The notes beneath the pieces are model-generated. The model made no database searches, was not told the origin of the DNA, and saw nothing but the letters and a program-made list of their open reading frames with translations. The position numbers and the translations under genes were made by a program. This document shows, piece by piece, positions 40,080-61,574 of a stretch of 64,000 nucleotides of DNA. The first letter of the stretch is position 1. The number at the start of each line of letters is the position of its first letter. The DNA is from an uncultured Hellea sp. Lineage in GTDB: Bacteria > Pseudomonadota > Alphaproteobacteria > Caulobacterales > Maricaulaceae. The stretch is from assembly GCA_905477785.1 (NCBI GenBank), contig CAJQGR010000008.1:4900-68899 (forward strand), in the 5' to 3' direction.

Positions 40080-41042
40080 ATGACAGAAACTATTCACCAT
40101 AAAGTCATTATTATTGGCTCAGGTCCAGCAGGTTACACTGCGGCAGTATATGCGGCACGTGCTATGATTGAACCTGCGATAATCTCTGGCCTACAACCTG
40201 GTGGGCAATTAACTATTACAACTGATGTGGAAAATTATCCAGGTTTTCCGGAAATACAGGGTCCAGAGCTTATGGAAAAGTTCAAAGAGCATGCCCTTAA
40301 GTTTGGAACAAGCTTTTATGAGGACACAATCATAAATGTTGATTTTACAACAAAACCATTCAAAATGTTTGGTGATAGTGGAAAACTATACACATCAGAT
40401 GCTGTGATAATTGCCACTGGGGCTCAAGCTAAATGGCTGGGTCTACCTACAGAAGTAAAGTTTCAAGGTTTTGGTGTGTCAGCTTGTGCTACGTGCGATG
40501 GATTTTTTTATAGAAACAAAGAAGTAATAGTTATTGGAGGTGGAAATACAGCCGTAGAAGAAGCTTTATTCTTAACTAACTTTGCATCAAAAGTTACACT
40601 TGTTCATCGCCGCGATACTTTGCGTGCAGAAAAAATTCTGCAGCATAGGCTTATTAATCATGAAAAAATCGAGGTTTTATGGGACACAGCACTTGTAGAA
40701 ATTCTTGGGGATGATAACCCAATAGGTGTAACAGGCGTAAAATTAAGAAATTTAAAAACAGGTAACGTTTTCAAACGAGACACACATGGAGTTTTTATCG
40801 CTATAGGTCACAAACCTTCAACAGATGTATTTAAAGGTCATGTTGAGATGAATGAGGGTGGGTATATTTCCACTGCACCAGACAGCACAGCAACAAATGT
40901 ACCCGGAGTATTTGCTACTGGGGATGTTTCAGATGAAACCTATCGTCAAGCCGTAACTGCAGCAGGATTAGGGTGTATGGGTGCTTTGGAGGCGGAGCGG
41001 TTTCTGACTGAGCAAGAAGCTCTATCTGAGGCCACTGAGTAG
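40080..41042 (+). CDS. trxB: Thioredoxin-disulfide reductase
   Basis: GSGPAG, GGQLTITTDVENYPG, SACATCDG (CxxC), GGGNTAVEEA, QAVTAAG. Confidence 0.98.
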   Translation: MTETIHHKVIIIGSGPAGYTAAVYAARAMIEPAIISGLQPGGQLTITTDVENYPGFPEIQGPELMEKFKEHALKFGTSFYEDTIINVDFTTKPFKMFGDSGKLYTSDAVIIATGAQAKWLGLPTEVKFQGFGVSACATCDGFFYRNKEVIVIGGGNTAVEEALFLTNFASKVTLVHRRDTLRAEKILQHRLINHEKIEVLWDTALVEILGDDNPIGVTGVKLRNLKTGNVFKRDTHGVFIAIGHKPSTDVFKGHVEMNEGGYISTAPDSTATNVPGVFATGDVSDETYRQAVTAAGLGCMGALEAERFLTEQEALSEATE

Positions 41043-41052
41043 TGAATAGCTA

Positions 41053-41949
41053 GTGGACAGTTTAGATTGGGATAAAGTTAAAACATTTCATGCTGCTGCA
41101 GAGACTGGTTCACTCACAGCAGCTTCAGAGCTTTTAAAAATATCGCAATCTGCAGTTTCACGGCAAATCTCAGCCTTAGAAGATAGCTTAAACACACCTT
41201 TATTCCATAGACATGCAAGAGGATTAACTCTCACAGAACAGGGCCGCATTTTATACAATACTGCTCGCGAGATGGCTCATAAAGTAGCTCTTGCGCAAGC
41301 ATCAGTGATTGATAGCCGAAACAAACCTCAAGGTGTACTGAGAGTATCAGCTCCAACATCATTAGGGGCTAATTGGCTAACATCTGTTTTGCCTGAATTT
41401 ATAGAAGCTTACCCAGAGATTGATGTGCAATTAATCCTTGAAGATGAAGAACATGACCTCTCCGCCTTTGATGTAGATTGCGCATTAAGACCTTGGCCAT
41501 CAACACAAGGGGATGTTATTGAAAGAAAGCTAGGCACTATATCGCAAAGCCTTTATGCATCACATTCATATCTCGCCAAATTTGGAGCGCCAACCTCTGC
41601 TCAAGATCTAGATAATCATAATATAATTGCATTCGGTGACCTAAAACCCTCGCGCCTTCATAGTACTAATTGGGTTCTCAAAGCTGGTTCTGATAGCAAC
41701 ACAAGAACACCTATTCTCTGTGTTAATAACCTTCATGGAATTATGAGGGCAGCTGAGGCAGGTATTGGAGTAGCCGGTATTCCAGATTACATGACTGCAC
41801 TATCACGAAGATTAGTAAGAATATTACCACAGGTAAAAGGAGAAAGTTTTGATGTTTTTTTCGTATACCCCAGTGAATTAAGAGGTTCTGTAAGAGCTAA
41901 AGTTTTCAGAGAGTTCCTTATGCGAGTAACACGAAGCTGGAACTATTGA
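41053..41949 (+). CDS. LysR-type transcriptional regulator (LsrB/VtlR-like position)
   Basis: HTH GSLTAASELLKISQSAVSRQISALE, LFHRHARGLTLTEQG, LysR substrate domain; directly after trxB. Confidence 0.92.
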   Translation: MDSLDWDKVKTFHAAAETGSLTAASELLKISQSAVSRQISALEDSLNTPLFHRHARGLTLTEQGRILYNTAREMAHKVALAQASVIDSRNKPQGVLRVSAPTSLGANWLTSVLPEFIEAYPEIDVQLILEDEEHDLSAFDVDCALRPWPSTQGDVIERKLGTISQSLYASHSYLAKFGAPTSAQDLDNHNIIAFGDLKPSRLHSTNWVLKAGSDSNTRTPILCVNNLHGIMRAAEAGIGVAGIPDYMTALSRRLVRILPQVKGESFDVFFVYPSELRGSVRAKVFREFLMRVTRSWNY

Positions 41950-41972: not shown

Positions 41973-41990
41973 CTATGCATAATTGCATAG
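41973..41990. promoter_or_regulatory. Palindromic putative LysR recognition site CTATGCA-N4-TGCATAG
   Basis: Perfect 7-bp inverted repeat centred about 65 bp upstream of the predicted sRNA start. Confidence 0.6.
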
Positions 41991-42045
41991 CTGTACTGCT
42001 TATCTAAGTCTTCTAGCTTTATCATTATTTGATTATGTTCTTAAC

Positions 42046-42164
42046 AAGAATTAGGTACGTCCCTCCCCTTTCGTTCCCTATGTTCTTATCCGCAAATACT
42101 TCTTCCCCGAAGTTTAAGCGATGACTTTAGCCGGGCCCGGATTACCGAGTGCCCGGTTTTTTTT
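42046..42164 (+). ncRNA. Putative AbcR-like trans-acting sRNA
   Basis: Hairpin 1 (42046-42087) has loop UCCCUCCCCUUU. Hairpin 2 (42091-42120) has loop UUCCCC. A terminator hairpin with U8 follows. Candidate -10 TATGTT at 42034-42039. Position downstream of trxB-lysR. Confidence 0.72.
42131..42164 (+). terminator. Rho-independent terminator
   Basis: CCGGGC-CCGG-ATTA-CCGA-GT-GCCCGG followed by T8. Confidence 0.88.
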
Positions 42165-42177
42165 ATTTAAAAAATTT

Positions 42178-43410
<1,233 letters not shown>

Positions 43411-60146: not shown

Positions 60147-61427
60147 TCAGTCAATGAGCTTGTCGCCTGAACCAAGAACGAGATAGCAAACTCCACCAAT
60201 CACGCTAATTATTGCTGTTACGATGAATACATTTTCATAGGATCCGGTTTGCTGAACAATATAACCAGCGGCAATCGCCCCTATTGCGCCAGCAGCGGTT
60301 CCAAAGGTGTTAAGTGTTCCATAGATAATATCGGCAAAACGCGGCGCAATATCCAGACTATTTGGAACTAGGCCTGCATAAGCGAAAGCTAATATCCCTA
60401 AGGCCGCGCACATCAAGATTGTTGCAGATTTTGCGCTTTCAGCATCTCTCAGAAAGTACATAAATATTGCAGAGCCTAATAAGCCAAAGCCAATTAAAAT
60501 TTTTCGTGTTTTTGTCGCGCTAATGCCAGTTTTCAGCATGTAATCTGCAACCCAGCCGGTCACATTCATCATGAGAAACATGACAATCCAAGGCAGCACT
60601 GCATATATCCCTGCCCCAGCGAGGTCGAGCTTATGTACATCGGAGAAGTAACTGGGAAGCCAGGATAGAAAAATATACAGCGTCCATGAAGCCGCAAAGC
60701 CTGTAATGCAAAGTGCCCAAACAGGCTTTGCTAAGAAGATTTCCTTCCAGGGGATAACTTTAGCTTTTTCTTTTACACCGCCCCCAGCCGCGATAATTGT
60801 TCTTTCATAGCTCGTAATCGATGGATGCTGATCCGGGTGTTCCTTTATCAAAAAATACCAAAAGATTGCCCAAATGAATCCCAAAGCTCCAAAGGCGTAA
60901 AAAATCATTTCCCAGCCATAAGTCGTTACAATCTTGGGGCCTAACAAAAGTGCGCCAACGGTTCCGAGAATCGTTCCAGAAGAAAGAAAGCTCATAACTC
61001 GAGATTGCTCTGTCTGAGGGAACCAACGTCCAACTACCGTAAAAGAAGACGGAGCTAGGCCAGCTTCACCAACACCCATCAGGAATCGTACGGCCAGTAA
61101 AGCGGGAATGGACATGAATGCCGCTATTGGCGTTATTAATGTGAAGACTGACCAAAAAACGACGGCCCAGCCAAGAACAAGTTTACCTCCAAATCGATTG
61201 GCGAGATAACCACCGCCAATTTGCATGCACAAATAACCCCAAAAAAAGAAGCTAAAGACATACCCTTTATCAACATCAGACCAGCCAAATTCCTTTTGCA
61301 TGCTGATGGCGGCAATCGAAATGTTTACGCGGTCAAGGTAGCAAATGACGAATGCAAAAAATGCTAAAACCAATACCGTCATACGTTTTGGCCAGAACGG
61401 CTTTTGCGTGTTTATTTCCGCTCCCAT
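60147..61427 (-). CDS. MFS transporter, anion:cation symporter (ACS/SLC17-like) family
   Basis: ICYLDRVNISIA, GGYLANRFGGK, RFLMGVGEA, RWFP..E, WLPSYF. ATG 61427 has an AAGGGG RBS; the ORF-track extension to 61775 overlaps the divergent gene. Confidence 0.92.
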   Translation of the reverse strand: MGAEINTQKPFWPKRMTVLVLAFFAFVICYLDRVNISIAAISMQKEFGWSDVDKGYVFSFFFWGYLCMQIGGGYLANRFGGKLVLGWAVVFWSVFTLITPIAAFMSIPALLAVRFLMGVGEAGLAPSSFTVVGRWFPQTEQSRVMSFLSSGTILGTVGALLLGPKIVTTYGWEMIFYAFGALGFIWAIFWYFLIKEHPDQHPSITSYERTIIAAGGGVKEKAKVIPWKEIFLAKPVWALCITGFAASWTLYIFLSWLPSYFSDVHKLDLAGAGIYAVLPWIVMFLMMNVTGWVADYMLKTGISATKTRKILIGFGLLGSAIFMYFLRDAESAKSATILMCAALGILAFAYAGLVPNSLDIAPRFADIIYGTLNTFGTAAGAIGAIAAGYIVQQTGSYENVFIVTAIISVIGGVCYLVLGSGDKLID

Positions 61428-61574
61428 AAATTCCCCTTTTTGCGCTACTCTATTAGAGCACGCTTCTGAAAGCTTATCAAATTGGGCACTTATACTGTCT
61501 GCGAGGCCTAATTCTCTAATATAGAATTGACAATTGCAGCTTGACGGCTCTTTTAAGACAAGTAGAGAATTTAT

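Follow-up and report, generated by a model that had tools for sequence, protein, structure and literature searches.

Does the intergenic DNA behind a LysR-type regulator gene in an uncultured Hellea sp. encode a small RNA (sRNA), and is that RNA the rhizobial regulator AbcR? The question arises from a stretch of 64,000 nucleotides (GenBank assembly GCA_905477785.1, contig CAJQGR010000008.1, positions 4,900 to 68,899 of the forward strand), here called the window, in which an original prediction, made from the sequence alone, had placed an unannotated AbcR-like sRNA with two anti-Shine-Dalgarno (anti-SD) loops at positions 42046 to 42164. The analysis described here indicates that the element is probably an independent, trans-acting sRNA gene of about 119 nucleotides (nt), the Hellea/Robiginitomaculaceae version of the LsrB-controlled anti-SD sRNAs of the Alphaproteobacteria.

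A conserved RNA with three hairpins

The element occupies window positions 42046 to 42164 on the plus strand and folds into three hairpins, the last of which is a terminator with a U8 tract (RNAfold; coordinates re-checked letter by letter). All three hairpins were found exactly as the original prediction had described them, and the RNA is made up of the following parts.

42046 to 42164, plus strand: sRNA of about 119 nt, with a 5' end predicted to within 3 nt and a 3' end at the U8 tract
42046 to 42087, plus strand: hairpin 1 (SL1), with the 12-nt anti-SD loop 1, UCCCUCCCCUUU, at 42060 to 42071
42091 to 42120, plus strand: hairpin 2 (SL2), with anti-SD loop 2, UUCCCC, at 42103 to 42108 and an invariant CGC/GCG base
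42120 to 42130, plus strand: single-stranded A/U-rich linker GAUGACUUUAG (family consensus GCGAAGACUU), a possible Hfq site
42131 to 42164, plus strand: Rho-independent terminator, with a GC-rich stem at 42131 to 42156 and U8 at 42157 to 42164

The spacer between SL1 and SL2 is AUC. The minimum free energy (MFE) of the element is -36.8 kcal/mol, compared with -23.4 ± 3.5 kcal/mol in 200 dinucleotide shuffles, none of which folded as well (z = -3.83). A peptide-coding reading was rejected; the sole ATG in the element opens a 14-codon open reading frame (ORF) that has no Shine-Dalgarno (SD) sequence and is missing from relatives.

Related loci were retrieved by way of the LysR protein, which gave 81 loci at 70 to 97% identity from Hellea, Litorimonas, Algimonas, Robiginitomaculum, and unnamed Caulobacterales metagenome-assembled genomes (MAGs). 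The element lies directly 3' of the LysR gene in 78 of these 81 loci; congeners were also found to carry it by blastn, and in Hellea balneolensis DSM 19091 the sRNA is located at L037:2504-2626. Alignment of all 78 sequences with MAFFT and RNAalifold missed hairpin 1 because of indels, a problem solved by using a homogeneous 24-sequence seed, the RNAalifold consensus of which is the three-hairpin fold, followed by model-based realignment. The covariance model built on this seed (R1) gave one match per locus in the 78 loci, with the window match spanning 42041 to 42164 at 60.6 bits. A second covariance model, R2, scores the window sRNA at 77.6 bits and matches nowhere else in the genome, which is 97% complete and in which blastn likewise finds a single copy.

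A lack of stem covariation in related genomes, which the original prediction had named as a result that would speak against it, was not what was observed. In the family alignment, which is fitted to the covariance model, paired cells amount to 89.8%, compared with 65.7 ± 0.6% after shuffling and 28 to 39% with slid partners, and compensatory changes occur at 29 of the 33 base pairs. Every helix covaries except the invariant CGC/GCG base: compensatory changes are found at all 12 pairs of helices 1 to 3 (hairpin 1) and at all 11 pairs of helix 6 (the terminator), which is 94% paired. As a check independent of the model, each sequence was also folded singly; the MFE structures show the first C-rich motif within a hairpin loop for 71 of the 78 sequences and the second for 77. 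The loops CGUCCUCCCCUUUU and UUCCUCCCCGAAU are nearly invariant across the 78 sequences, whereas the stems vary freely. The linker GCGAAGACU is also nearly invariant, and an (A/U)GACU(U) linker ahead of the terminator is common to the consensus sequences of SorX, SorY, and MmgR and to the class-wide lsrB-linked sRNAs described below. Judged by these comparisons, the locus is a conserved, unannotated sRNA gene with a structure far beyond chance.

Genomic context and the LysR-type regulator

The host assembly is 1.83 Mb in size with a GC content of 37%. The LysR protein is 96 to 97% identical to proteins labeled "MAG: Hellea sp." and 87% identical to that of H. balneolensis DSM 19091. The lineage is non-rhizobial, as had been supposed, since the closest named genomes are those of Hellea spp. 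and the NCBI taxonomy places Hellea in the order Maricaulales, Robiginitomaculaceae. The gene order at the locus is greA, an ELM1-like gene, trxB, the LysR gene, the element, and a convergent aspartate aminotransferase gene; because this last gene is convergent, the element is not the 5' leader of the next gene. The genes immediately flanking the element are as follows.

40080 to 41042, plus strand: trxB, thioredoxin-disulfide reductase (TIGR01292, 402 bits, above cut-off; Pyr_redox_2)
41053 to 41949, plus strand: LysR-type lsrB/vtlR orthologue (HTH_1 and LysR_substrate), with a GTG start 10 nt past the trxB stop
42178 to 43383, minus strand: aspartate aminotransferase, convergent with the element

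The best match of the LysR protein in the Protein Data Bank is 9HH1, the structure of Agrobacterium tumefaciens LsrB (PMC11975290), with a full-length alignment scoring 286 bits (E = 2.5e-84) and 45% identity across 296 aligned positions; the next LysR-type transcriptional regulator (LTTR) scores 119 bits. No NCBIfam equivalog reaches its cut-off for this protein. By sequence comparison the gene is an orthologue of LsrB/VtlR. This match, together with the TIGR01292 assignment for trxB, places the element directly behind trxB and lsrB/vtlR, the location that the original prediction had given for AbcR1/2 of Agrobacterium and Sinorhizobium. The genes trxB and lsrB share an operon in the Rhizobiales, where lsrB activates both abcR1 and nfeR1 (PMC11975290, PMC8844928, PMC10746234). 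The gap between trxB and lsrB in the window is 10 nt, and the sRNA starts 92 nt downstream of lsrB on the plus strand. Its terminator at 42131 to 42164 probably also ends read-through from trxB-lsrB. The genome contains an hfq gene. Autoregulation was looked for in the start regions of trxB and lsrB, which showed no notable pairing with the sRNA loops.

A separate motif, TTTATTAAC(C), is conserved about 8 to 15 nt past the sRNA U-tract in most relatives (L034-L110; for example, L037:2634-2645), not in the subgroup to which the window belongs. It may be a promoter or a binding site (TTAAC half-site) for the next gene.

Promoter and putative LsrB operator

The 78 upstream regions, aligned by anchoring on a palindrome, share the promoter consensus CTATGCaTttaTGCATAG-N6-ttTGCg-N9-cTTCt-N17/18-CTtATTTA. 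The corresponding features of the window are listed below.

41973 to 41990, no strand assigned: putative LsrB operator CTATGCA-N4-TGCATAG (ATGC-N6-GCAT), a perfect 18-nt inverted repeat with its centre some 64 nt upstream of the predicted transcription start site (TSS)
41985 to 41997, plus strand: VtlR/LsrB consensus match GCATAGCTGTACT, an exact GCAT-N3-TG-N3-T, at -61 to -49 if the TSS is 42046
42010 to 42015, plus strand: -35-like element CTTCTA (family consensus cTTCt), in a conserved alignment block
42033 to 42039, plus strand: predicted -10-like element TTATGTT (family consensus CTATTTA/CTATATA)

The palindrome ATGC-N6-GCAT is exact in 73 of the 78 family promoters and lies at a fixed distance from the conserved -35 and -10 blocks, unlike the flanking sequence of the 92-nt spacer between lsrB and the sRNA, which varies freely. 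The 18-mer is unique within the 1.83-Mb genome; in other alphaproteobacterial families this position is occupied by ATGC-N7-GCAT. A repeat centred near -64 occupies the classical position for an LTTR. The published VtlR/LsrB consensus is GCAT-N3-TG-N3-T (PMC7486931), found at the same position in the abcR1 promoter of Sinorhizobium meliloti (PMC8844928); the exact motif occurs 287 times in the host genome. Because it survives in only 2 of the 78 relatives, the conserved feature of this promoter is the palindrome and not the published VtlR string. The alphaproteobacterial sigma-70 consensus is CTTGAC-N17-CTATAT (PMC8844928). A generic sigma-70 scan does not call the promoter, which looks weak and activator dependent; transcription from it would start near 42046, and the palindrome is the predicted site of LsrB binding.

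Elsewhere in the genome, a near-copy of the operator (GTATGCATATTTGCATAG) occurs just once, outside the window, at G000 C43:6767-6784. It precedes, by about 70 nt, a divergent ORF of 52 amino acids (C43:6524-6682, minus strand) that has an Arg-rich C terminus and no Pfam match and that recalls the VtlR-activated small proteins of Brucella and Agrobacterium.

A mechanism can be proposed on this basis. LsrB, which is redox responsive and encoded immediately upstream, would bind CTATGCA-N4-TGCATAG centred near -65 and activate the weak sigma-70 promoter (-35 CTTCTA, -10 TTATGT). Transcription would begin near 42046 and end at the U8 terminator, and the RNA would fold so that two hairpins display C-rich loops, CUCCCCUUU (loop 1) and UUCCCC (loop 2), that mimic the anti-SD sequence of 16S rRNA. 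With the help of Hfq, the loops may then pair with G-rich ribosome-binding sites (RBSs) of target mRNAs and block their translation.

Relationship to AbcR, NfeR1, and other curated families

A search of Rfam at gathering thresholds returned only two tRNAs and nothing on the element. Permissive matches to ylbH (minus strand), P36, ar15, SorX, and RcsR1 were all below threshold and were discarded as evidence of membership. The AbcR model, ar15 (RF02345), which the original prediction had proposed as a check, aligns with the element over its full length at only 14.3 bits (cut-off, 40 bits; E = 2 in a 401-nt search) and has no match at an E value of ≤1 in 17 related loci. A search with the same model of 301 genomes of the class gave no match, nor did it in 14 control genomes, and is hence uninformative. 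The ar14 model has no match at an E value of ≤10 in the window region. SorX (RF02784) scores 11.3 bits on the window (cut-off, 46.6 bits), and the SorX core ACCUCCCUGUUGGAC is absent; SorX itself derives from the 3' untranslated region (UTR) of ompR-1 in Rhodobacter and not from lsrB (PMC8034643).

AbcR1 (alpha-r15; RF02345), known from Sinorhizobium, Agrobacterium, and Brucella, resembles the element in other respects. Like the Hellea sRNA, AbcR1 adjoins lsrB, itself paired with trxB, and has an LsrB/VtlR box (a putative one in Hellea) near -60; it is about 115 to 120 nt long, carries a CUCCC-type anti-SD loop in the first hairpin with a second C-rich motif after it, and has an A/U-rich linker before a Rho-independent terminator. 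An hfq gene is present in both cases, and the sRNA would be expected to act by pairing with transporter mRNAs at their ribosome-binding sites. In AbcR RNAs, the M1 motif (CUCCCA) is in the loop of the first hairpin and the M2 motif (GUUCCC) is single stranded between hairpins 1 and 2 (PMC5461406). Loop 1 of the Hellea sRNA, UCCCUCCCCUUU, contains not CUCCCA but CUCCCC, as M1 does in S. meliloti AbcR2 (PMC5461406). The second motif of the Hellea sRNA, UUCCCC, forms the hairpin 2 loop and is not part of the SL1-SL2 linker. Further differences are the lack of a significant Rfam match and the presence of a single copy, whereas AbcR genes have tandem or multiple siblings and alpha-r15 RNAs are invariably multicopy in Rhizobiaceae and Brucellaceae (PMC3712013). 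The operator is ATGC-N6-GCAT rather than N7, with the exact published motif mostly not retained in relatives, and the host is a member of the marine Maricaulales. Since it has almost no ATP-binding cassette (ABC) binding proteins, its regulon is probably not that of AbcR1.

NfeR1 (alpha-r14; RF02344) of S. meliloti is likewise activated by LsrB and has stems that vary while identical CCUCCUCCC-type anti-SD loop motifs are kept (PMC10746234). It differs in not being encoded beside lsrB and in having three anti-SD hairpins, compared with the two here (CCCUCCCC and UUCCCC). The design in which every loop is an anti-SD sequence and the stems are variable is closer to that of NfeR1/alpha-r14. The description of the element as an AbcR-like homologue or analogue holds for the neighbourhood, the LTTR box near -65, the two exposed anti-SD loops, and the terminator, and fails on ar15 membership. 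The sRNA sits where AbcR1 sits and would work like AbcR or NfeR1, and it is not a formal member of AbcR or of any other curated family considered.

Distribution of the trxB-lsrB-sRNA module

AbcR sRNAs are, by published account, confined to Rhizobiales families (PMC3712013), and a 2025 study called LsrB "unique to Rhizobiales" (PMC11975290). The latter statement is contradicted by the presence of LsrB orthologues in more than half of the alphaproteobacterial families sampled: 87 of 151 contain a single-copy orthologue (about 44 to 50% identity, 260 to 320 bits). Within the GTDB order that includes Hellea, an orthologue was found in 121 of 201 genomes, distributed over four families, and is absent from two whole families (f3 and f6). 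This absence fits the published absence of LsrB in Caulobacter.

At the level of the class, trxB is upstream of lsrB in 28 of 29 loci. An exact ATGC-N7-GCAT box is present within 450 nt downstream of lsrB in 14 of the 29, the N6 form in none, and 16 of the 29 have a downstream anti-SD sRNA with the core (A)CGUCUCCCAGACGUGAAGCCUCCCUGU followed by GACU and a terminator. These class-wide RNAs (L141-L169; for example, L156:2577-2692 and L142:1183-1326, minus strand) consist of a CUCCCA-loop hairpin, GAAGCCUCCCUGU, GACU, and the terminator, and one locus (L150) has two tandem copies. They score 27 to 43 bits on the SorX model and weakly on SorY and MmgR by way of a "CCUCCCUGUUnGACU + terminator" module, and a literature search for their core sequence returned unrelated papers only. 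The model of the Hellea family weakly matches nine of them at the expected spot (11 matches in 93 kb). The class-wide sRNAs (CUCCCA loop, GCCUCCCUGU, GACU, and terminator) share with the Hellea sRNA the site, the type of palindromic box, the anti-SD motifs, and the GACU(U) linker; they differ in having ATGC-N7-GCAT boxes and a ACGUCUCCCAGACGUGAAGCCUCCCUGU core, which is missing in the Hellea sRNA.

Closer to Hellea, deeper genera of the same GTDB family (L210 in G026, L211 in G114, and L216 in G215) carry a longer RNA downstream of lsrB. It measures about 200 nt, displays three hairpin loops of the CUCCUCCCC type, as NfeR1 does, and was missed by model R2 at an E value of ≤0.01. At another deeper locus of the family (L212) the RNA has the same two-hairpin plan as in Hellea, and a locus from a sister family (L213) also has an N6 box. 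In genus g7, a boxed sRNA is found away from lsrB (G022:C3:327229-327354 and G200:C1:2178059-2178188; L130 and L136), one of the two genomes having it on a different contig and the other on the same contig as lsrB at a distance of 1.3 Mb. The sRNA gene has thus moved in this genus with its operator retained, and expression is therefore possible without read-through from lsrB. As far as these genome comparisons go, the trxB-lsrB-box-sRNA module is old and widespread, and the window holds a lineage-specific variant in which the operator is 1 bp shorter and the hairpins are rebuilt.

Candidate targets

The transport inventory of the 1.83-Mb genome includes 15 genes for TonB-dependent receptors with a Plug domain. 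Genes for ABC binding proteins are limited to one Peripla_BP_6 and one SBP_bac_5, with no SBP_bac_8, and the start regions of these two genes have no complementarity to the sRNA loops. Because there are only about two such proteins, neither of them complementary, a function as an ABC regulator is unlikely.

The original prediction had proposed the ribosome-binding site of a transporter gene as a target within the window.

61431 to 61439, minus strand: RBS AAAGGGGAA of a major facilitator superfamily (MFS) transporter gene (60147 to 61427, minus strand; ATG at 61427), a candidate target

This RBS is real and the gene does encode an MFS protein (PF07690); its duplex with loop 1, at -16.7 kcal/mol, ranks about 26th among 1,808 crude gene calls, and the site is one of about 30 comparable RBS matches. 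Octamers complementary to loop 1 are present at the ribosome sites of several long ORFs, including those of three receptors as well as that of the MFS gene.

The receptors were compared with the rest of the genome by using hand-picked receptor starts, set by the signal peptide, and crude calls for the other genes. On this basis, AAGGGG is found in the RBS of 5 of the 15 Plug-domain receptors and in that of 24 of 1,793 other genes (Fisher p = 2e-6), and the median loop 1 duplex is -11.2 kcal/mol for receptors versus -6.3 kcal/mol for the others (p = 0.005). Pairing with the 16S rRNA tail (...ACCUCCUUUCU) shows no difference between receptors and other genes (p = 0.46), with a choice of background starts that favored 16S pairing. 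An unusual RBS, AAGGGG(A/T), is shared by receptor genes and lies upstream of G000 C3:2009-2326, C7:80649-80978, C16:9595-9921, C75:8613-8954, and C10:42696-43055; it makes a better match to the sRNA loops than to the 16S tail. Orthologous receptors keep GGGGA-type sites in H. balneolensis, in another Hellea genome, and in a genome from another genus of the family, G027 (L172, L180, L181, L199, L207, and L208). It may be speculated that the main targets are mRNAs of TonB-dependent receptors with an AAGGGGA[A/G] RBS and of some other transporters rather than those of ABC binding proteins. The joint proposal that, in the marine Maricaulales, the LsrB operator contracted from N7 to N6 and the circuit was rewired to TonB-dependent receptors is possible and is put forward tentatively.

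Alternative explanations

Several observations count against an independent, LsrB-activated sRNA acting on receptor mRNAs. A generic sigma-70 scan calls no promoter at this position and the -35 element is weak, the exact VtlR motif is absent from all but two of the relatives, and the palindrome has a spacing of N6 here and of N7 in other alphaproteobacterial families. The stretch from the lsrB stop at 41949 to the element contains no terminator; read-through must therefore end at the terminator of the element, and some or all of the RNA could come from such read-through followed by processing. On the side of the targets, the statistics are post hoc, the ORF calls behind them are crude, and the receptor starts were picked by hand; a G-rich RBS may be no more than a sign of high expression or strong translation. 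A genome-wide ranking by duplex energy was dominated by mis-called internal starts (truncated FtsH, TypA, and PrfB) and was dropped in favor of the k-mer and Plug-domain-anchored analyses. The missing terminator and the negative promoter scan would both suit an element that serves the trxB-lsrB operon only as a structured 3' UTR and terminator, with the small RNA being a processing product of lsrB mRNA that has no promoter of its own and that may or may not act on targets in trans; in Rhodobacter, the sRNA SorX derives from a 3' UTR and its 3' module is similar (PMC9438474). This origin is nevertheless unlikely given that 73 of 78 loci conserve the palindrome, -35, and -10 with their spacing fixed, in contrast to the variable spacer around them, that the boxed sRNA of genus g7 is not adjacent to lsrB, and that the AbcR1 gene of rhizobia, which occupies the same position, is transcribed from an LsrB-dependent promoter of its own (PMC8844928).

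A true AbcR (alpha-r15) homologue that represses ABC binding-protein mRNAs through M1 and M2 would account for the shared neighbourhood and box, the AbcR2-type M1 variant in loop 1 (PMC5461406), and the full-length, though weak, ar15 alignment. Such an identity is quite improbable in view of a score of 14.3 bits against a cut-off of 40, with no match in the 17 relatives; of a second motif that is not in the single-stranded linker; of the single copy, as opposed to the multicopy alpha-r15 RNAs (PMC3712013); and of ABC binding-protein genes that are few and noncomplementary in their start regions. It is barely credible that the hairpins arose by chance or represent a mere bidirectional terminator or an element of the minus strand. 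The minus strand also folds, less well than the plus strand (z = -2.99), and the ylbH leader model scores 23.2 bits on it at window positions 42042 to 42166; this score is far below the cut-off of 50 bits, the ylbH leader is an element of Firmicutes, and the match was judged to be a chance product of the mirrored hairpins. Family-wide covariation includes abundant G-U pairs, of which one SL1 pair alone has 42, that are compatible with the plus strand only; the plus strand also carries the U-tract, and there is no minus-strand gene downstream for such an element to serve, as it would be antisense to lsrB.

Implications for Hellea and the Maricaulales

Elements of this kind are already known, with AbcR1 and NfeR1 as the characterised examples. 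The whole module of trxB-lsrB, operator, and anti-SD sRNA is present in the marine Maricaulales, at the window locus and in 78 relatives, and current Rfam models miss most of the LsrB-sRNA circuit. The Hellea variant is useful in that it has a cultured relative (H. balneolensis), a small genome, and an almost absent canonical ABC regulon, and Hellea offers a clean test of the function of an LsrB-driven anti-SD sRNA in an oligotroph that relies on TonB-dependent receptors. If the proposed targets are correct, a redox-controlled sRNA would repress TonB-dependent receptors, which are the dominant uptake systems in these bacteria, in place of the ABC importers repressed in rhizobia.

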